In this document: one piece after another, positions 7,818 to 48,419 of the stretch
Layout of the letters: every line of letters begins with the position of its first letter
How positions within the stretch are numbered: position 1 is the stretch's first letter
Assembly (NCBI GenBank): GCA_046563655.1
Contig: CM102289.1
Location: forward strand, 9,176,001 to 9,240,000
DNA from: Yuukianura sp. NJ FZ-2021
Lineage: Eukaryota
Length of the DNA stretch: 64,000 bases
Reading direction: 5' to 3'
Program-made: the position numbers and the translations under genes
Notes under the pieces: generated by a model
Seen by the model: the letters and a program-made list of their open reading frames with translations, nothing else
Told to the model about the DNA's origin: nothing
Databases searched by the model: none

Positions 7818-10766
7818 ATGCAGGGAAAGGCCATAATCGTTACTATGAACAATCCAGTTGTATCTTCTCCGGATAGATTGGCTGTCAAGATGAACGGTTC
7901 CAACAGTACAAGCATTAGTCCGTCGACTAAGTCGCCGTTAGCAGTGTATCCGCCAGCACGGAAACCTGCTGGTTCGAGCCAGAACGAAGTTATCACATGT
8001 TCCCCAACGTTACCGGGTATGATTCCTAGCAACGCAAAAAGACGCAGAACTTCTGCCGAATATGAATTGACAACAGAGCAAATCAAGACTGAAATATTTG
8101 CTTACGGAAAGAAACCAGAAATTAAGCTCACCTTATTCTCAGAAATGTACTCGTGCTCAAACTGCTGCGAACTGTAAGTTGAATCTAATCTGTGACTAAT
8201 CTGAGATTAACCATAACCTAATTTAAACTTTAGGTTTTACACTGAAATGGGATTACGGGATCACCAGCAACGTGAAATCTTCAGTGTCACTTTAGACTGC
8301 CCTCATTGTTCACTAAGGAAATCTTATGCCAATCGATGTCAACTACTCAATCACCTTAAGTCTCACGGTGTCACGCCTACAGTCGAAAGCCTAAAAGGTG
8401 TCGTCAGCTTTGCACCGATTCCAGAAGGCAAAGACTTTCACGATTACTCCATCATAATCCCAACGAGACATCCTGGCTATGTCCCGACTGCTCCTACTAC
8501 TATCATACCTAGTCAACTTGACGTTACGAAGACCGAGCTTCAGAAAACCGGGATAATTCTACGCGGAGAACGTCAGTACAAAATCATTCCTGTCAGTAAC
8601 GTCCAAAAAGCGTTGAACATGGCCGCCGCAAGTACAACTTCTTCATCAAACAACGATCCAACCGGAGTAATAACGATTTCGGATCGTCAGCTGACTCCGA
8701 AGTATGCCAAGGACTTTTTCTGTGCCGCCTGTGGCTCCAACTTTACCAACGGCACAGAATTTGTTGAGCACATCAAATTATCCAATATGAGCAGCTCTGA
8801 ACTTACGATTTGTGGATCCGATGGAGTACCAACCAGATCCCAATGTGAAAGGCACCTACACACTCGCATATTCCATGACAAAGAGGGGCCCTTCGTCTGT
8901 CCAGAATGTGGACATCAATGTCAAGACTACGAAGAGCTAAGGGCCCATGACGACAAAGTGTGCTTCCACCTCTCTAGATCGCTCATCTACACATGTATTT
9001 TCAACAATGGGAAGAATTCTGCTAAAGACGGTGGTCCACAGAAGAATACTTGCGGAAATGCTGGCAAGTTTGTCAATACAAATCAGTTAGTCAAACACCT
9101 TGAACAGCACTGGAGAGACATCCACAAGTGTAACTCCTGTCCACAGGCGCTGTTGAGCTTAGAGTTACTGGAGAAACATGTCGAAGCGATTCACAAAGAC
9201 GATGAAGTCAAGATGGAGCAGAAAGGACTCAACTTCGTGCAATGTTTGGTCTGCAACGTTATATTTTTCACTCGGGCGCTGTTTCAAGAACATTTTTTGT
9301 CCAAACTGAAGGATCACAGTCAAACAACCTTGGGCTTCCACTGCAAAAAGTGTCGCTACTCTTCCGAAAATTCCAGACAATTTGCCAGTCACAATTGCAA
9401 TCCTATCCAAAATGACACAAACCGAACGTCGCTACTGAAATCCGTGACCTCTGGAGGTCACTCTGCCAGCTCGACAGGTCATCGCTGCGTATATTGCAAG
9501 AAGTCTTATCCAACCGTTCGAACTTTGAAGCGCCACCAACCAACATGTGATCTCAAATCAATCGTTGTACAAAGGAAACCCGCCGTATGTAAAATCTGTT
9601 CCAAGACGCTCCAAGGTTCTAAAAGTTTTCTGGCCCATGGGATGACTCACCTTAACGCTGGAATGAACATTTGCTTGTTCTGTAACAACAAGAAACTGGA
9701 CGACTCCGATGACCTTGACACCCATTTGATGGCCCATGTCAAGGCCATTAAAGTTTTTCCGCACGAATGTCGCTTTTGTAACCTCAGTGTTGAAGATCGA
9801 GACGACGCCCATGAGCATTTTGCTGCCCATCATGAAAAAAAGGGAAACTGCTTCAAATGTGCTACTTGTGGCGACCATTTCGACTCTGTTCCAGAACTAA
9901 CTGTGCATAAAACGACTGCCCATGCTGCTTCAGCATCAGTTGCTCCGCCAGTACTAAACAATGGATCTTCCAGTACTAAAACTCGGGTCATTCGTCCAGC
10001 ATTTAGCTACTCATATCAATGCAAATACTGTCCCGATAGAAAGTTCCAGACACGCCCAGGACTCCGGAAGCATCTTAGAAATCACCATACAGAGATCGAT
10101 TTCACTTCGGTAGATTGGAACGAAATGAGAAGAATCACCCGCACAAGTTCAAATTCAGCGTCGGTTGGATCTCATACTTCGTCGTCATCGTCACCAAGAC
10201 GACACAGTTTGAGAGACAGAAGTGCTGCTAATAGAACAGCACCGCCCAGTATCATTGGAACACACTTACATTCTAACAGCATGGAAGACTCAGATGACGA
10301 CAATCCCGGAAGACATCGAAGTGCTCGCAGCGATGGCGGGAAGTTCCAGTGTCTCAAGTGTCCAAATGAAGACGACGTTGACAAAACGTTTGATTCCGAA
10401 TCAGCGTTTTTTGAACATGTGAGAGAAGTTCATGTTTGGGAAGAAGCGAATCTGGAACAAAGCGATGATGGCAGCGATTCTGTGAAACCCAGAGATCAGT
10501 GTTTCTGGTGTCCGGAATGTGGACTGGAATTTGTGGCCAAACCGTCGTTTAGAATGCATCTCCAATTTGCACATTCGTTTATCAAAAACGTTACGGAGTA
10601 CTTGGACAACGTTGGTTACGGAAAAGAAAAACCGCTGAAACAGAATCAGTGCTCAGTATGTCGTCGCCAGTGTCCAGATTCAGCTGAGTACGAAAGTCAC
10701 ATCAGGACGCACGGAATGGCGTTTCTGCGACAGCGAAGTCAGCGTCCTTCCTCTGTTTCTGTTTAA
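7818..10766 (+). CDS. multi-C2H2 zinc finger protein, ZNF532/ZNF592/ZNF687 family
   Basis: Two coding exons (7818-8173 and ~8234-10766) giving YSCSNCCELFYTEMGLRDHQQR...CPHC...YANRCQLLNHLKSH; many CxxC...H...H fingers; family-type motifs FVCPECG, KVCFHLSR and C-terminal HIRTHGMAFLR. Confidence 0.85.
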
Positions 10767-31769: not shown

Positions 31770-32150
31770 TTTTGGAAAAAGTCAGATTAGGCTAACAAAT
31801 ACACCAAAGTGTATTTTCCTAATTTATGAGAATTTTAAAAATTTCAAAAAATTTATTTTTCAAAACATCATCACACCTTCTAACTTTCCACAGAAGGACT
31901 TTTGGAAGAAGTCAGAATAGGCTGAGAAAATCACTAAGGTGTATTTTCCTAATTTATGAGAATTTTAAAAATTCCAAAATATTGTTTTTCTGAAACCCCA
32001 TCACACATTCTAACTTTCTACAGGAGGACTTTTGGAAAAAGTCAGGATTAAGCTAAAATATTCACTAAAGTGTATTTTCCTAATTTATGGCGAATTTAAA
32101 AATTCCGAAATATTGTTGTTTTTTTCAAAACACCGTCGATTACTGTTGGA
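31770..32150. repeat. ~130-bp tandem repeat, about 3 copies
   Basis: Recurring GTGTATTTTCCTAATTTATG...CATCACAC.TTCTAACTTTC.ACAG.AGGACTTTTGGAA.AAGTCAG; a diverged relative lies at ~28260-28425. Confidence 0.8.
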
Positions 32151-32544
32151 AAAAAAACTAAACTAAAAATAGCGTGCTGAGTATACGGGCTGGGATATCG
32201 CCCGATACCCGCTTTAATCAAGTAATACTAATTCATAGATTTTGAAACTTTCAAGCAAACAATTTTTTTGGTTCATTTCATGATTGGTTGATTGAAAATA
32301 AGTTTTAAGGACGTGTGCTATGCGTCTAATCAACAGCAGTTGTTAAATTTAGTTACCACGATAACCGAACTTGTGTAGTTAGTAAAAGTTGCAGACATCG
32401 ACAAAAAGAAACACTCATCTGAAAAACGATCAGTGCAAAGATGGTCAAAAAAGTATAAACTTTCAAACAAACAAAATACTGACTCAAGTTCGGTTGCCGT
32501 CGTTTGAGTTTTGTAAATAAGTTTTCTGAAACTGCGACATTGAA

Positions 32545-32829
32545 AATGAAAAATCGTGGGGATCAGCGTAGAAAGGTCGTACAATGACCTACAATATATC
32601 AAACTCTAGGAAAAGACCTGATCTAGTATCCTGTTGAAAAAAATTACAAAATTTTAGTTCTAACTGTGAAAAAAATTGACCCAAACATTCCACCTCCATA
32701 TTTACATAGATAGAACTAAAATTTTGTAATTTTTTTCAACAGGATACTAGGTCAAGTCTTTTTCTAAAGTTTGATATATTGTGGGTCATTCTACGACCAT
32801 CCTACTCTGATCCAGACCATTTTTCATTT
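32545..32829. repeat. inverted repeat, ~118-bp arms with ~48-bp loop, probable DNA-transposon remnant
   Basis: CTAGTATCCTGTTGAAAAAAATTACAAAATTTTAGTTCTA (to 32662) is the exact reverse complement of TAGAACTAAAATTTTGTAATTTTTTTCAACAGGATACTAG (from 32711); imperfect pairing extends outward. Confidence 0.75.
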
Positions 32830-33119
32830 GACGAGTTACAGCCCCATTTTGACCCCCCGTTTCCAGGGTGTTCGTACACCTTAAGTGGGTTTGAGACAAA
32901 AACTGAAAATGAAATTATTGTTTTTAATTTTTTTTGATGATTTTTTCATTAAGGCAACCAAATTGTATTTGTAAGTTTATTTGTTTTACTATGACTTGTT
33001 TTGATTTCGTTGTTGCAATTCAAGTTGATGCAATATTTAAAATGTTGAGTTTTTTAAAATTCTAGCCAAATTCAAAATTTCAAAAATTTCCAAATTCTAA
33101 ATTTTGAACAACTTGTCCA

Positions 33120-35386
33120 ATGGACACTCAGGGTCGTAGTGCCTTGTGGCACAGTGTCTTTGGTCCTAAAGTTCCAGAGCAACAGCCAATGGAGTGGCAG
33201 GAATCCCAGGGCGTTGCTCAAGTAAAAACTTAGCTCATTTAAAAATCTAAAAAAAAGTTGTTTAAAAAATGGTTCAGCATTTTAAGTTTTTTTTAAGTTT
33301 ATTTTTGGACAACTAGAATTTTGGCGGGTCTTCATGGGGATACCATCAGTGGCCAGTCTGGACACAACAACAGGTTCCTTGTCAACCAATCACAGGCCTC
33401 GAAGGGGGTACTGCAGTGACGCACTTTGTTAGCCCTTGGACATCTCAGCCTGTGATGCAACAACAGTTCGTTCCTTACGTCAATGGCCAGCAGTATTACC
33501 CCGTTATTGGTCAAGGTCACACGGGTCAAGTTCAAGTACCCCAGATTGGACAAGTTCAAGTACCCCAATTGAGTCAATTTCAAGTGCCCCTGATGGGCCA
33601 AGGTCACGTACCTTATATTCAACAAGGCTATGTACCCCAGATTGTTCAAGGTCATGCACCTTTCGTCGGTCAAGGTCAAGTACCCCTCATTTGGCACCCT
33701 GAACAACCACTTTTCCAAGGCCAAGTGTACCCTCACATGGGTCAATTTCAACTGGTGGGTCAACTTCCAGGAGTACCTTTGACCCCACAGCCTTTTCAAG
33801 GTCAAGCATCGCCCGAGGCACTTTACGACATGAGAAGAATCGGTCTTGAGTATGACCCGCGTGGTCTGATCACTGCGCAGCCGAAAACTGTTCCCCATCC
33901 GGCGTCAATTTTCCCACCAGCCACGGGTATCACGATGTCACAATTAATTACATAATGTATTTAATTTAATATAAAATATTTTATTATTTATAACTTATTT
34001 TTAACATTTTACAGATCCCGTTGCAGAGTTGCGAACGACGCAACCCGGGAAATACGTTTTAGTGGACGTCGATCGCTTGGCAACGGTTTTACGAAAAAGT
34101 CGTTCTGTCGAATTGACACGAAAACGGAGTTGTCCGTTCCAAGCTGAGCGGGAAGCTTATCAAAACCGGACCATGAACCGATCGAACTTTTCTCAAGGTC
34201 ACACGGTAGAGCCGTCCTGGAGGTCAAGATCAGCTGAGTTCCTACTCGGGAATAATCGGAACCGCTCGGCATGTCCAGCCTACTGTAACTACAGCAACGA
34301 CCTTGACGAACTCAACAAACGGCTGGAGCGACACACTCAGGAACTTCGCCATCTTGGACAGTCCAGATCTTTCAACAGGATTACCGGTTTCACTCAGCAT
34401 CAAAATTCCGGACCGCCTAGGAACAATTCCGATCCGGACACGGCTCTCGGTTTTTTCGGACGCTTCCACGACCGGCGTGCAGCAGCATTGAAGTACAATC
34501 AGCGTCCAGCGCAAACCGCTGGAAACCTGCCATACCGTTTTCCGTCACAAACTACATTGAGCTTGTATCCAACTCCGACCAAGCGTTCTCGAAGCAGCGA
34601 AGCTCGGTTTTTCCGGAATAGTCGAACTGATGGCGACATCTGCCGAGTTATTCCAAACGCTGGTTGTAGAGACTTGAGTGTCGACATTGTACCGTTTCGG
34701 ACCGTCCAGGAGCAACCCGGTATTTGGGACCGAATTATGAACTTGGTCCGGACACCAGCACCGTCTCCGGTCAAGCGGACACCTTCTGGATACTTTGACG
34801 CTGGAGTGACGCTGACACGCAGCGATTATTTCTGTGAACCGCACTGCCGACAGTTAAACAGAAGAACCACAGCGACTGGCCAATGTTTTGTAACGGGCTT
34901 TGTGATTGGTCATACCATTTGGGGAGAACTTAAATTCGAAGACATGTTTGATGTCAGTGGACTCAATCTGGATGAGCTCGGTAAGAGGTCACTGACCCCG
35001 CCAAAGGTCAAATTAGCGAAATTTTAGAAATTTTGGAAAAATGATTTTTTGAAATTTTCAAAAACTTTTCAGTTGAATTTGGCCAGTCGTCTGTCCTCGT
35101 GTACCCACCGTGCCACGGTCGTCAAATCCCGCCTGTGGGAGAAGGTTTGAATCGTCCCGCCACTGTAACCCTGCGCCGTGTTTTCCCAACCAATCCAATC
35201 ACACAACGGTCCGTCACAGAGCCAGGGAAAATTCGACATTTGAATTTTGAAGATCAGTTGAAACAAAAAGTTGAATCGTACAGGGGAACTTTTGTGAGTT
35301 ACGATCCGGCAGGAGGTGTTTGGACTTTCAAAATTCCGTATCTTGTTCCGAATTCAATTCGTCCGTACTACTCAACTTTATACTAA
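33120..35386 (+). CDS. Q/G/P/V-repeat protein with C-terminal Nup98-type autopeptidase (peptidase S59) domain lacking the HFS motif (~663 aa)
   Basis: Exons 33120-33221, 33317-33926, 34015-34980, 35073-35386 total 1992 nt in frame. C-terminus VTLTRSDYFCEP...GFVIGHTIWGELKF..DVSGLNLDELVEF...PPVGEGLNRPATVTL..VFP...FVSYDPAGGVWTFKIPYL follows the Nup98 autoproteolytic domain pattern. Confidence 0.8.
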
Positions 35387-35707
35387 TAAAATTAACAAAA
35401 TTTTTATTTTAGTTAAAATTTATTTTATAACTTGATATGATTTATAAGATTTTTTAGACTCTGAAACTCGTGTTGGTAAGGAACATACCGACGCCAAGAA
35501 AAAGCCCGCGAAAATTTCGTCAGAATTCAAATATTTTTTTTGTAAACAGTCACGTTTGAAATCAGCTGTTTCTTTTGCCGCTACTTCTGCTGTATTGATG
35601 TTCGTGGAGGGATTACTTTTAATTATATTCCTAATTAATTATTCATTGATTATTAATTAATTAATAATTATTAATTAGTTGAAACTTAGAGCGAGACAAG
35701 GGATACG

Positions 35708-38700
35708 ATGGCAACATCCGACAATGCAACCTTTGGACATACGTAAGTGAACATTTTTTATGCAATAACCTTTTTCACTTAATCTCCGGATAAACTAAAT
35801 TGGTCGTTTGATTTACTAAATACTAATCACTAGGCAATTGTTAAGCACAATGGCGACACAACCGATTAAGAATCTGGGTACGGCAGTCATCTACGATACA
35901 GGGACCACAACTTACAGAATGTCATATAAAACGTTTAAAACGGTAGCCGACCACATTGAAATGCAGTTGAAGAGAGCCCACTGCGATTCTGACGGAGGAT
36001 TTGTCGGAGTCGTTGTTGAACAGAATGAAATGTTTCCTGCAGTTCTTCAAGGGTAAGATTTGACCTTGACTACTTCATATATAAGTTCCAGACGAAGTAA
36101 CTGACATCTTTCGTTGTTCTGACGTTTCTTTGTTCTAGAATTCTACAAGCCGGGATGGGATTCTATTGCATGACGGTTGAGACGGATTTTTCTGATGCTG
36201 AAGAACTTCGTACATTACAGATGCTGAAAGTTCGACTAGTGATTGCTCAGGATGGCGTCGATCTTCCGATATTCCCAGACGTAAAAGTCATGGATTTCGG
36301 AATAACCGAACCAACATCGACAAAACTACGTTTATTGAAGTTGGATTCCACTCAAGCCTCGTCTGTACAGTATTCATTCTTTTTCAACAACGAGGATCAT
36401 CATCGAGGTACCTTTACCATGACGCCGTTTGAATGGGCCTACGCAATACGAACTTCCGGAACAACCAGCTCCAGAAAGCTGGTTCTTGTCTCCCACCGGT
36501 CTATTACACCGAATATTGTTGACTTTGTTCAAACATTTAAACTCGGCCGGAAAGATGTCATCTTCGGTGCTTCTCCGCCTACATTTGATCCAAACGTGAT
36601 CGATGTGTTTACAGCATTGAAGGCCGGAGGTACCATTCTATATACTACGAAAGCTATAAAACTCATTCCAGAAAAACTGACGAGTTTATGCTGCAAGCAC
36701 GGTGTGACATTTATTCAGTGTACTCCAAGTTTCTTCTACCGATTCGACACTGCAGAAGCAACAAACTTCGTTATGAGCAATATGCATCTTAGGTTCATTG
36801 CCTTTGGAGGAGAACCTTGTCCGAAACGGGAGTACTTACGCAATGTGATTCCGCCTCATCGTCGTCCTACTCTTTTAATTTACAATCTTTACGGCACAAC
36901 GGAGCTTTCATGTTGGGCATCCGTTGACCTAGTGACACTGAAGAATTCCGATTCAAGGGAAATCGGCATCTTGCAAACGCTGATTTACGACACAAGTTAT
37001 CGACTCGTCGACACGGATGATCCAAATGAAAAGGAAATCTTACTTGGTAATTAATACTAAGCATGAAATAGTTCAATGTTGACCGATTTTTCATAATTTA
37101 TCTAGAAGTTGTTAACAGGCACCAGAAATCGTCGATGTCTCATTCTGAACTGTGAAAATGGCCAAGTGGATCCACCAGAGCTCATCGACGACGACAAAAC
37201 TACGTTTAGACGAACCGGTGATGTTATTGATGCAACTGAATTGCCAAAGTTGGTTTACAAAGGCCGAACGGACAACAAAATGAAGCGCCACGGTCACTTT
37301 GTCGATCTGCAAGATCTGGAGCAACGACTGGCCTCAATTCCAGCAGTTGAAAGTGTCTTTTGCTTTGGTGATTTTGGCAAAATCTATGCCGTTCTTACTC
37401 TAACCACCGCAAACTTCTCCAGTACCTCCTCCGAGTCTAACTTATATACCAGTCAATTGTTTTCTGAAATTGAACGCAGAGTGCCAATCAGAAGTCTTCC
37501 AAATCATGTGATCATTCTCCATCCAAAGGAAATTCCGTTAACTGCTAATGGAAAGTTTGACCTCAAGGGACTCAAAAGATTGATTTTGGATAAGAAGATC
37601 GGAGTTGCTGAAAAACAAAAACTTCAGGTTCAAGTGGACGATGTTGAGTTCATTTTGGAAAATGCTTGGCACATTTATACTTCCTCAGCATCAGCATCAC
37701 CCAATAATCAAGAACTCCTCGAACAGAATTTCATTGAAGCTGGAGGTGATTCTGTAAAGGCAATGCAATTGACTGAATACGTCTTTCAAGAACTGAATCT
37801 CTTTGGAACTTTTCTCCAGCAGCATCACAGTCCCGAATTACTTAGAATTCTAGTTCGGTCGAAGTATTCTAATTTAATCGATTACGTTCGTAATCAAATT
37901 CTGCCAGCAGCAAACTACAACGTCGCAGTGTCGTCGTTTACTGAAGAAGACTTGGACGCTGGAAAAACTCAAAACAGCAGCGATGACGCTGAACCGTGTC
38001 ACAGTTGCACTGAACTACTGCTAAAAATTGACACTTCTGCATCTGATGATGCAAATTGCGACACATCGCAATGCCTGCAATACTCTCATCAATTAGCGTA
38101 CAATCTGTACGGCTGTGTAGATGCAACTCCGGTTCTAGTGACACATCCAAGTAAGATCTCAAAGATTTGATTGATACAGATAATTGTCTGATTTCTTTCG
38201 ATTTAATGATTACTGATTCAGATTACTCATTATTGATTTAGATTACTGATTCGTTTGATTTTCAGTACTTGGAAAGATAGTGATTGGCACAAGCAATTCT
38301 GGGTATGTCATCGCTGTCAAATCGCAAAGTTCTATGAAGTTCGAGAATCCAGGAGGCAGTATGTTGTGGTGGAAGAAATTTCCAGATCGGATTGTAGCCT
38401 CTGCTGCCTCCAGTAGAGATCAACTGACTGTGTTCATCGGTAAGTTTTTTGGAACCTAAAACGTATGATTAACGTTTTACTTCTTGAGCTAATGAATGTG
38501 TCCTGACTGAAATCCTGCTTTTTAGCCTGCTGTGATTGTCGCCTTTATGCTGCCGAAGTTGAAACTGGCAGTATCAAGTGGACCTACTTCTGCGGAGGAG
38601 TACTTCTGACATGTCCAGTTGTAGTTCATGACGTGGTGATTGTATCTGCCGATACTGGATGGATATTTGCGGTGGACCAATCGGTGAGTCACAGTTTAAG

Positions 38701-39575
38701 TTCACACATCGACTGTGCTGCTGAATTCAATCTTTGTTTTTTGGTCCAATAGCTCGGAACGCTGCGCTGGAAGTCAGAAATTCCGAAGCTGAAATCCAGT
38801 CTAGCCCCACATTTGTTCTGTGATCAGTTGTTGGTCGCCACTGAAGAAGGGATTAGCTCCATAAACTCCACTACTGGAAGTATTTCCAGTACTTTTCAGC
38901 TCAAAACAGTATGTACCAACTTTGCCGGCGACCGTGGTCCAGTACTTTGCGTCGGATCCGTTGAAGAAGTTTCAAGCTCTAACTTTCTGCATGTACTCCG
39001 ACTTCGGTCGAACAAATTCGAGGAAGTAAGGTTTCAATGGTTATGTTAATTAATTTGAATGAATTCTGAGACTAATCCTTATTCATTTGTAGGTCTGGAG
39101 AGTTCAAACTGATGGAATGGTCCATACGCCTGCGTTTTATTGTCATCGGACTCAATGTATATCGTTCCTCTGTTTGGTTTACATCACCAGCACAGGGAAA
39201 CTTGTAATCCTCAGACAGGCTCAGACATGCGTGGTGTATAACGAACTGGAACTTGGTGTGCCCGTAGCTTGCCCTCCGGCGTTTCTCGAAGTTGATGGTA
39301 CGACATACGTTGTCACTATTTCCAAGGACACCAGACGCCAAAATACAATTGAGTTCATCCTCGTCAGGGTTCCAAGGGATGTATACTCTGCGAAATTGAA
39401 TGATCCGCCGGAAGTGCTGACGTTTTATTCTCCACATGATGCGCCAATCCTGTCCAGTATTTTGATTGACGACGAATGTGTCGTCTTTGGGAGGAGGGAT
39501 GATCGATTGTACTTTGTGAACTTGGGACATAGAATTAGGCAAGTTCAGGACAAGAAACAGGAGATGACAAACTAA
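35708..39575 (+). CDS. AASDH: beta-alanine-activating enzyme (NRPS-like: adenylation, carrier and PQQ-type propeller domains)
   Basis: YAIRTSGTT, SPPTFDP, FGGEPCP, YNLYGTTELSCWA, RTGD, YKGRTD..MKRHG, PLTANGK; carrier motif NFIEAGGDS; GCVDATP propeller start; terminal VFGRRDDRLY. Confidence 0.9.
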
Positions 39576-40048
39576 CTGGACTGATCTGCGTTACCTAGAA
39601 CTAAGTTACACTTGTATTAATTAGTTAAATGAGTAATCGGTTAACGTGAGCTGAGCATTTGAGGTGTCAAAGGTCAATTTTCAATACTTTTCTAGATTAT
39701 TTCATATCCATAGCATTGGAGATGTTTTGTAGAAGCCTCAAACCATATGATTTCAATGCGCCAAAACATCTCTTTGAAAAGTAGAATAAAAAGTTGGGAA
39801 AAAAATCACAAGAACAATTTGAATTGGTTGCAGATTATTCGATTAGTTTTCCTTTGATTTAACTAACAATTGATTGAAGATTGTAAACGTGGGTTGATCC
39901 GTTCATCTTGGTGGTTGAATCGAGGAGGAAGTCTATTCAATTTGGCATTGAAGTTCGTAAGATTTTTAATTCTCATTGCATATTGTGAAATTTGAACAAT
40001 TTTAGTAAAAATTCTGATTAAATTTATTTAGGACAACCGAGGTCAAAC

Positions 40049-41220
40049 ATGATTAGTTCAAAGCTAATCTTGAGCTCCGGAGCCTTTGGTCATCCCATAT
40101 TGATGGTAAGTCGAGAATTAATTATGTTTTCGTACGTTAATTATAGATAAGAAAAGTAAGGAACTGAACTGCAAACTGTTTTTTTAGCTCCAGGCAAAGC
40201 GCAGCGCTGCAACGGCAGCAGCAGCATCGAAAAGGGTGAAGCAGTTTGCAGTGTACCGATGGGATCCGGACAGGAAAGACGAGAAACCGCGACTCCAGAA
40301 CTACGATATTGACCTCAACGCTTGTGGTCCAATGGTGTTAGATGCCCTCATCAAAATCAAGAACGAAATTGACCCGACATTGACCTTCCGTAGGTCGTGT
40401 CGTGAAGGAATCTGTGGTTCGTGTGCCATGAACATCGGAGGAGTCAACACCCTGGCATGTATCAGGTATGGTCCAGCATTAATCAATTTTGTTGTCTGAC
40501 TTGTAGAAAACGTAAGTAATTCGATTATTTTGGTTTGATCAACAGTAAAATCGATACTAACACGAACAAACCAACGAAGATCTACCCACTGCCGCATATG
40601 TACGTAGTGAAGGACTTGGTACCGGACATGAACAACTTTTATAACCAATACAAAGCAATCCAACCTTGGTTGCAGCGGAAGGACAACGACAAGCCAGGCT
40701 CTGCTCAGCTATTGCAGAGTGTCAAGGACCGAGAGAAACTGGTATGAAAAGTCGAAAGACAAACGTTTCTCTGATGGAGGTCAAAAGGTCACGTGTTTCT
40801 ACTTTTTGTTTCAGGATGGTTTGTACGAGTGTATCTTGTGTGCTTGCTGTAGCACTTCTTGCCCGTCTTATTGGTGGAACTCTGACAAGTACTTGGGGCC
40901 TGCCGTTCTGATGCAAGCTTACCGATGGATAATTGACTCTAGAGATGAAAAAACTGCAGAGAGACTGGACAAACTGAGAGATCCGTTTTCAGTATTCAGA
41001 TGTCATACCATCATGAACTGTACCAAGACTTGTCCTAAGGTACGTTCAAAATGTGCTCTAGGTCATTATAAAGGTCAAACATTAAATGTTGTTCCCCGAA
41101 AATCTTAATTTTCAGAGTCTGAATCCCGGAAAAGCGATTGCGGAAATCAAGAAGCTGCTGTCTGGAATAGCATCAAAGGAAAAGCCTGGATTGTCCGGAA
41201 AGTTGCCAGCAAACTACTAA
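40049..41220 (+). CDS. SDHB: succinate dehydrogenase iron-sulfur subunit, mitochondrial
   Basis: [84 protein letters not shown]; 5 exons. Confidence 0.97.
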
Positions 41221-48145: not shown

Positions 48146-48419
48146 CCGTAAATCTCCGAATAGAGCACTCTGGATTCGAAATTTTTAAATTCAGGTTCTC
48201 TCTCTCTCACCAAATGTGAGGCTCAACGAATAACTGTGCAGAAAAAATAATGAGCGGAGTGGGACTCGAACCCATATCTGTTCAATCCGGGAAGAGCTCT
48301 ATCCATTGAGCTATCTGTCCTTCCACACACCTTCAATGAAATTGTTGCCAACTTAGCGACACTAACTTAGCACAACTGAGGAAAGATAGTACCCAGAGAC
48401 AAAATTTGGAGATTTACGG
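48146..48419. mobile_element. Tc1/mariner(pogo)-type MITE, TA target duplication
   Basis: TA|CCGTAAATCTCCGAAT ... ATTTGGAGATTTACGG|TA, 15/16 inverted match. Confidence 0.7.
48250..48320 (-). pseudogene. tRNA-derived sequence (tRNA pseudogene or SINE head)
   Basis: Minus strand GGACAGATAGCTCAATGGATAGAGC...GTGGG-like T arm ATGGGTTCGAGTCCCAC: A box and B box intact; acceptor and anticodon stems do not pair well. Confidence 0.6.

Follow-up and report, generated by a model that had tools for sequence, protein, structure and literature searches.

A predicted Nup98-type autopeptidase domain protein without catalytic motif, FG repeats or Nup96 in Yuukianura sp.

Introduction

The window analysed here is a 64,000-nucleotide stretch of DNA from Yuukianura sp. 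NJ FZ-2021 (assembly GCA_046563655.1, contig CM102289.1, positions 9,176,001 to 9,240,000 of the forward strand). At 33120-35386 on its plus strand it carries a predicted four-exon gene whose product ends in an autoproteolytic domain (APD) of the Nup98 type. The Nup98 APD almost always stands in one context, preceded by an FG domain and followed by Nup96; in the protein described here the domain has neither neighbour, and its catalytic His-Phe-Ser (HFS) motif is replaced. If our interpretation is correct, the gene would be a natural experiment on the uses of the APD fold other than self-cleavage and anchoring of the canonical kind, and would exemplify how a pseudo-peptidase can originate when a gene is partly duplicated; its biological weight is uncertain.

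Gene structure

The predicted coding sequence comprises 1992 nt over four exons and encodes 663 amino acids, followed by a TAA stop codon at 35384-35386. Exon 1 (33120..33221; residues 1-34) opens with a start codon at 33120, four codons downstream of an in-frame stop codon, and exon 2 (33317..33926; residues 35-238, the last codon split) belongs to a 212-codon open frame of nearly uncharged low-complexity sequence rich in Gln, Pro, Val and Gly. Exon 3 has two parts: a basic Ser/Arg-rich linker of no known family (34015..34802; residues 238-500), and the N-terminal third of the APD, which ends in LNLDEL (34803..34980; residues 501-560, the last codon split). Exon 4 supplies the C-terminal two thirds of the domain up to WTFKIP (35073..35338; residues 560-648), then Tyr649-Leu650-Val651 at the position of the catalytic triplet (35339..35347), and finally a 12-residue tail, PNSIRPYYSTLY, with the stop codon (35348..35386).

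All three introns (33222-33316, 33927-34014 and 34981-35072) run from GT to AG, with the donors GTAAAA, GTATCA and GTAAGA and the acceptors TAG, CAG and CAG, respectively. An AATAAA hexamer at 35385-35390 overlaps the stop codon, and the next gene on the same strand begins about 320 nt downstream. The GC content is 0.44 across 34001-36000, as against 0.35-0.38 in the flanks.

Identity of the C-terminal domain

The initial annotation had read the last ~150 residues as a Nup98-type APD, and the profile comparison it proposed bears this out: both domain exons match PF04096, the Nup98-96 autopeptidase S59 family in Pfam's naming (profile length 148; cut-off 28.4 bits), above the cut-off. The last 53 residues of exon 3, residues 269-321 of the open reading frame (ORF) translated from 34017-34979, match profile positions 2-53 (E 1.9e-6; 28.5 bits), and exon 4 matches positions 60-141 (E 7.2e-16; 59.1 bits). 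Exon 4 alone also matches the solved Nup98 APD chains of frog, human and mouse with E-values of 5e-14 to 6e-12, and the yeast Nup145 and Nup116 chains more weakly; a search of 1.84 billion representatives with it recovered 654 proteins at E ≤ 1e-3.

When the exons are spliced in silico, the 163-residue C-terminus aligns with Nup98-96 proteins across positions 1-150, at E-values that are relative to the 150-sequence set only, so the predicted exon 3/4 splice restores one uninterrupted domain. The end of exon 3 is 41% identical to residues 747-805 of Anabrus Nup98-96; identity to any APD reaches at most 42-46%, and is 42% over 146 columns in the alignment used for our tree. By the sequence definition of PF04096, the predicted protein therefore contains a complete Nup98-type APD.

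Loss of the catalytic motif

In the alignment to the human chain 2q5x_A, which ends in KVSHFA and represents an S864A precursor, the window protein places Lys-Ile-Pro-Tyr-Leu-Val opposite Lys-Val-Ser-His-Phe-Ala. Among the 95 full-length APDs of the 150 listed relatives, the motif reads HFS in 82 and HFT in 7; the other 6 have different residues, and in these the motif site is the very end of a fragmentary model. His and Phe are thus present at the motif in all 89 HFS or HFT relatives, and the substitution of YLV followed by a short tail, as the initial annotation had it, stands. The stop codon lies 15 codons past the His-equivalent position: Val651 is followed by the 12 residues of the tail, in which the conserved Tyr of HFSKY is Asn (Y653N) and which shows no similarity to the N-terminus of Nup96.

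Autoproteolysis in this family is described as beginning when the side chain of a Ser, Thr or Cys attacks the peptide bond before it, while burial of the Phe strains the backbone (PMC3210808). With Val at the nucleophile site and Leu replacing Phe, the protein is expected to remain uncut; going by its predicted residues, it lacks the H-F-(S/T) motif that an active S59 autopeptidase requires.

Intron positions and the origin of the copy

The intron inside the domain follows LNLDEL plus one G and begins GTAAGA. An intron of identical phase interrupts the same codon in two metagenome loci, L001 (LNIDEI+G/GTAAG) and L030 (MNLDEI+G/GTGAG; slashes mark exon ends), both of which carry other Nup98 genes of animals. 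L001 is canonical, with FG-rich exons upstream, and has a second intron (WVFN/GTAAGT...) before an exon that starts VKHFSKY. The homology of the window protein to all of its relatives stops after WTFK, exactly at the position of this second intron, where the window reads AAA/ATTCCG and has no GT donor.

As the homology is limited to two exons and the intron position matches, the locus looks like a partial DNA-level duplicate that lacks, or has lost, the HFS/Nup96 exon, which suggests that the gene originated by partial duplication of a Nup98-96 gene. Since a conserved intron position is precisely where the homology breaks off, the copy may have lacked the HFS exon from the outset, in which case the present tail would be new or formerly intronic sequence. 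Conversion of HFS to YLV by substitution in place is also possible; either way, no nucleophile is left.

Seven database proteins with no apparent HFS (P0001, P0005, P0006, P0031, P0033, P0082 and P0093) break off at this same intron and end in residues that resemble a translated GT donor. For P0006 the cause is directly demonstrable, as it is L001 (3253-3900) read through its intron, and by extension the others appear to be gene-model artefacts rather than natural forms too. Because several such HFS-less entries are read-through products, counts of non-cleaving Nup98 relatives taken from public protein sets would be inflated.

The same kind of error could in principle have produced the gene described here: the real transcript might run on to an HFS/Nup96 exon, or the APD exons might belong to another transcript. 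The read-through entries provide a precedent, and a GT does occur 6 nt past the conserved intron position (CC/GTATCT at 35338). However, the conserved position itself has no donor, no HFSKY-like peptide or exon is encoded downstream of the gene, and no Nup96-like coding sequence was found in the 64 kb; the overlap of AATAAA with the stop codon and the proximity of the next gene on the same strand also speak against such a transcript. We regard an artefact of this kind, taken together with the related idea that this gene is its lineage's sole and highly derived Nup98, as very improbable.

Absence of the other parts of Nup98

The predicted protein contains four FG dipeptides and no GLFG in its 663 residues, and none of the ORFs in the window's six frames is FG-rich. 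When 25 full-length Nup98-96 proteins (at least 1500 residues each) were compared with the window by tblastn, all 50 meaningful matches fell within 34700-35400, and everything outside that interval had E-values of 0.59 or higher; in particular, no match to GLEBS, the Rae1/Gle2-binding motif, occurred in the gene outside the APD. GLEBS-region matches at 9444-9509 (E 1.7-9.9) were rejected as Ser/Thr-rich low complexity beside a finger in a zinc-finger ORF. In BLASTP comparisons with an orthopteran Nup98-96 protein (P0095), exons 2 and 3 showed similarity in the APD only, and no Pfam match to the Nup96 family was obtained among 47 scanned ORFs, a subset of the 81 ORFs of at least 90 residues that leaves out overlapping and opposite-strand ones.

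The six-frame scan and the 25-protein search thus agree with the initial annotation that there is no FG/GLFG array, GLEBS motif or Nup96 part. With the changed K/R-loop residue described below, the predicted protein shows none of the Nup98 features tested: FG domain, GLEBS, Nup96 junction and K/R-loop residue. The FG domain of Nup98 is described as unusually conserved across eukaryotes (PMC4283134), so a sole Nup98 without FG repeats is unlikely.

Divergence of the domain and its docking residues

We assessed conservation against the 89 relatives with HFS or HFT, in which 38 residue columns reach a conservation of 80% or more. Of these, the window domain keeps 27 and alters 11 (R537H, Y540W, E566S, K578I, D600N, K601P, V647I, H649Y, F650L, S651V and Y653N), and has a two-residue insertion, H574 and G575. 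Over 46 scored columns, gap columns included, it keeps 27, whereas the canonical sequences keep at least 37, with a median of 44. Two of the 11 changes bear on function: the column of K578I, just before PPVGEGLN, has Lys in 88 and Arg in 1 of the 89 relatives; that of Pro601 (codon at 35195..35197) has Lys in 73 and Arg in 11, or either in 84 of the 89.

Pro601 occupies the position of K814 in the K/R loop of human NUP98. Index 99 of 2q5x_A corresponds to residue 814, because H-F-A at indices 147-149 corresponds to residues 862-864, in the numbering of the human protein quoted for H862 in PMC3210808; K814 is accordingly the Lys of WPTDKTSR, opposite the first Pro after Asn in FPTNPITQR of the window protein. 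The APD is described as anchoring Nup98 to the N-terminus of Nup96 or to the propeller of Nup88 through overlapping surfaces (PMC11148069), and human K814 as forming a hydrogen bond with NUP88 (bioRxiv 10.1101/2021.10.26.465790, section 13).

These residues bear on the possibility that the dead domain still docks on the Nup96 N-terminus, on Nup88 or on both, placing the protein at the pore or in competition with true Nup98 for its anchoring sites. Anchoring is the second known role of the APD in the account given by PMC11148069; the window domain retains the PPVGEGLNRPA segment, most core fold residues and, more broadly, the fold-defining and surface segment PPVGEGLNRPATVTL along with its 27 conserved columns; and FG-less rice APIP12 is reported to have bound OsNup96 in a yeast two-hybrid assay (PMC5311014). 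Set against this are the Pro at the K814 position, the neighbouring Asp changed to Asn, and the near-invariant Lys before PP changed to Ile. The Nup96 and Nup88 sites also overlap, as that description has it, and the protein's own uncleavable tail begins there. Experiments elsewhere point the same way: in Schizosaccharomyces pombe, Nup98 with an uncleavable tail is reported not to complement, while the cleavable form does (PMC4483485, section 3.4), and a cleavage-site mutant of the Entamoeba Nup98-like protein is described as less enriched at the nuclear rim (bioRxiv 10.64898/2026.09.13.750810).

With the K/R-loop Lys, the neighbouring Asp and an invariant Lys lost and an uncleavable tail at the Nup96 site, a simple carry-over of anchoring is disfavoured, and we think continued docking of the canonical kind unlikely. 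The initial annotation had seen in the gene a Nup98 derivative that might use the domain for docking at the pore or compete with true Nup98; the derivation holds, while canonical docking or competition is weakened by the replacement of K814 by Pro, the Lys to Ile change before PPVGEGLN and the uncleavable tail.

A gene tree, also foreseen in the initial annotation, was built from 90 APDs (the 89 HFS or HFT relatives and the window domain), with the motif and tail columns excluded and six motif-less rows left out. The terminal branch of the window domain is the longest in it (0.9, against a median of 0.17); no supported clade in this tree holds the domain, which joins another long branch (Seison).

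The low-complexity N-terminal part and the linker

Residues 40-200 contain 1.2% Asp plus Glu, no Lys or Arg and 28% Phe, Ile, Leu, Val and Met, and are rich in Gln, Pro, Gly and Val. They hold about 8-10 octapeptide units in the register hydrophobic-G-Q-x-x-V-P-x; in the DNA, a 24-nt (8-residue) tandem array lies inside exon 2 on the plus strand at 33503..33714, with seven copies at 24-nt spacing. The linker that follows (residues 239-500) has a pI of 10.5, with 42 Lys plus Arg and 42 Ser plus Thr in 262 residues, and contains the clusters RKSR, RKR and KRSR.

No relatives of either part were detected. Exon 2 has no similarity to canonical Nup98-96, and exon 3 none to Anabrus Nup98-96 outside the APD; two word-seeded searches found no homologs of exon 3 at E ≤ 1e-3, and the best score of the 262 residues before the APD in a protein atlas was 0.79, at noise level. 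A Pfam match of exon 2 to Cornifin was sub-threshold and compositional, and was set aside.

The FG domains of Nup98 are described as having a median charge content of 2.5%, a median length of about 549 residues, one FG per 12.5 residues and 13-17% Phe, Ile, Leu, Val and Met (PMC4283134). Residues 40-200 of the window protein are likewise charge-poor, but they form a shorter and more hydrophobic region that lacks FG; the two are alike in composition only. A more ambitious reading would make the protein a phenylalanine-free analogue of FG nucleoporins, in which charge-free repeats with evenly spaced aliphatic residues (I/V/L/M-G-Q...V-P in place of GLFG), as poor in charge as the FG domains of Nup98, are tethered to Nup96-type sites by the dead, tail-capped APD. 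Such a protein could enter and modulate the FG phase, or it could take up Nup98 anchoring sites in certain cells, such as those of the germline or those mounting an antiviral response; we consider this reading highly improbable.

Haplotypes, coding constraint and orthologs

DNA contigs of two sequencing runs from one sample, probably the same sample as that of the window assembly, contain two forms of the locus. Their contig depths of 86 and 154 add up to about the ~240 of undivided stretches, and they differ at 44 of ~454 letters in exon 2 and at 30 of 376 in exon 3. The counts of individual differences that follow are drawn from the best-supported 40 of 167.

The 36 coding differences among these fall at codon positions 3, 1 and 2 in the ratio 23/8/5, and alter 17 codons synonymously and 15 nonsynonymously; the six near the beginning of the APD (34769-34808) are all synonymous. 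The listed coding indels are frame-neutral, consisting of a +1/-1 pair 5 nt apart and an insertion of 18 nt, whereas those in intron 3 are of 2, 3 and 5 nt. The 18-nt insertion (relative to the window) lies in frame at 33771, in the Gln/Pro-rich repeat region; both runs have it in their contigs, as two variants that differ slightly. Alignment of the second form stops at 33222 and picks up again at 33311, which are the borders of predicted intron 1; by arithmetic, the record lengths of 567 and 582 fit a diverged intron 1 of 73 nt and not a deletion. A second contig joint, from 33996 to 35028 (side 23), links AT-rich introns with repeats in common and was taken as noise.

The alternative on which these data bear most directly is that a partial duplicate is in decay here: the locus would be a young pseudogene, or an ORF without function, in which no stop codon has arisen so far. 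Such a history would sit comfortably with the loss of the catalytic motif, the 11 altered conserved columns and the longest branch in the tree, and with the orthologs, of which we found none among 1.84 billion representatives, 5.8 billion clustered proteins or metagenome contigs; the metagenome loci yielded 60 relatives, the best at 42% identity. It fits less well with 663 codons open over four exons, with intact splice signals and polyadenylation signal, and with two haplotypes that both stay in frame although they diverge by as much as about 8% in nucleotide sequence, that show the third-position bias and the synonymous run at the APD start, and whose listed indels are frame-neutral in coding sequence but not in introns. 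Because the ORF is intact, third positions are favoured and the listed coding indels keep the frame, the gene is probably not a pseudogene, as the initial annotation had held, and we judge decay decidedly unlikely. The absence of orthologs also fits the earlier description of the gene as lineage-specific, with the reservation that the proteomes of the organism itself and of its sister lineages may be missing from the libraries.

In a further run, X5, labelled as a second organism (B) and with a coverage depth of only 2-4, pieces of exon 4 are identical to the window (155 nt, no differences), and pieces of exon 2 share variants with the second haplotype of the first (A). The two labels may refer to the same or very closely related species.

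Interpretation

We propose that this is a real, selectively maintained gene that arose by partial duplication of Nup98-96, in which a dead APD has been kept as a binding module with non-canonical docking; we give this account a somewhat better than even chance of being right. A partial DNA-level duplication would have captured the two exons that encode most of the APD, and these would have been fused with a new, disordered stretch some 500 residues long, the octapeptide-repeat region followed by the basic linker. With no Ser, Thr or Cys at the scissile position, and with His and the buried Phe replaced, the product should be unable to cut itself, and the APD would therefore be a non-catalytic β-sandwich, most likely kept as a protein-binding module. 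Because the K/R-loop Lys is Pro and an uncleavable tail takes the place where the Nup96 N-terminus would lie, canonical Nup98 docking is probably lost, and the low-complexity N-terminal part would instead be tethered to a changed or restricted set of partners.

Several points weigh against this account. Transcription, the splice sites and the 3′ end of the gene are predictions. Constraint on exon 2 is only moderate, with 12 nonsynonymous against 11 synonymous changes among the listed differences, and the haplotype evidence as a whole is weakened by being a partial list from a sample that is probably the window's own. The failure to find an ortholog is what a young, possibly non-functional duplicate would show as well. 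As to docking, severing the NUP88 interaction took a four-residue mutant on the NUP88 side (bioRxiv 10.1101/2021.10.26.465790), so the effect of losing K814 alone is not established; and since most of the fold and PPVGEGLNRPA are intact, a residual interaction of the Nup96 type is possible, including binding of a Nup96 peptide in trans.

Comparison with known relatives

With the canonical metazoan Nup98-Nup96 precursor (PF04096/MEROPS S59), the window protein has in common a complete APD and the position and phase of the intron within it; in contrast to the precursor, it has no FG or GLFG repeats, no GLEBS, no similarity in the linker and no Nup96, and it carries YLV, Pro601 and an uncleavable 12-residue tail. 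In yeast, Nup100 and Nup116 are non-cleaving, APD-bearing paralogs of Nup145N that keep their GLFG repeats. Like the window protein they are paralogs of the Nup98 lineage with the APD fold and no Nup96-type product; unlike it, they are GLFG nucleoporins, with a GLEBS in Nup116, and dock on Nup82, whereas the window protein has neither the repeats nor the K/R-loop Lys. For Nup116, the APD is described as binding the propeller of Nup82 (PMC4315244).

Trypanosoma TbNup158 resembles the window protein in having an APD without a recognisable HFS triplet, but it is still fused to a Nup96 part and has kept its FG repeats; some other apicomplexan or kinetoplastid orthologs are likewise described as non-cleaving with FG repeats kept (both PMC4483485, section 4.2). 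The Entamoeba Nup98-like protein is, as described, also small, with an S59 domain, a short tail and no GLEBS, but it retains FG repeats and undergoes processing at an HFT motif (bioRxiv 10.64898/2026.09.13.750810).

The nearest described analogue is rice APIP12, which by its description in PMC5311014 has a C-terminal Nucleoporin2 domain, no FG repeats, a length of about 600 residues and a lineage-specific distribution, and which that report presents as having no orthologue in other plants and as coexisting with canonical rice Nup98 genes. Compared by the same description, APIP12 differs in keeping GLEBS and in a domain that is 64% identical to the canonical rice one (PMC5311014). Lacking GLEBS in its predicted sequence, the window protein falls outside an APIP12-like class, and the two genes, one from a plant and one from an animal, surely arose independently.

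A literature search, with most subscription journals outside its scope, found no animal APD protein that lacks both FG repeats and the motif; it did yield rice APIP12, Tetrahymena paralogs and the Entamoeba Nup98-like protein. Two dinoflagellate proteins, P0003 (Effrenium voratum, 984 residues) and P0012 (618 residues), have two APD copies each, none of them with HFS; the C-terminal copy stops right at Arg-Phe, the position of a cleaved end.

Neighbouring genes and repeats

Upstream of the gene, on the minus strand, is an ADAM/reprolysin-like gene; downstream, an AMP-binding/ACSF4-like gene is followed by SDHB. The first of the downstream genes (35708-39600, same strand) encodes an AMP-binding enzyme with an ACSF4-type β-propeller signature. 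SDHB occupies 40236-41214 in four exons, and among named matches its spliced product comes closest to that of Bemisia tabaci, at 86.7% identity; other named insects reach 75-84%. Taken by itself, this comparison would suggest an insect, perhaps a hemipteran. Elsewhere in the window, a single ORF of 849 codons (8217-10763) encodes a multi-C2H2 zinc-finger protein, and the sole Rfam match is a tRNA on the minus strand at 48251-48320 (31.4 bits; gathering score 29).

Upstream of the gene lie a 129-nt inverted repeat (88% complementary, with 28 nt between its arms) and a 130-nt tandem triplet; the repeat features are located at 32544-32829, 31770-32160 and 33000-33167, and contig depth across 33000-33167 is raised about fourfold over the gene body. 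These repeats and the raised contig depth suggest that a dispersed MITE-like repeat probably lies at the 5′ flank of the gene.

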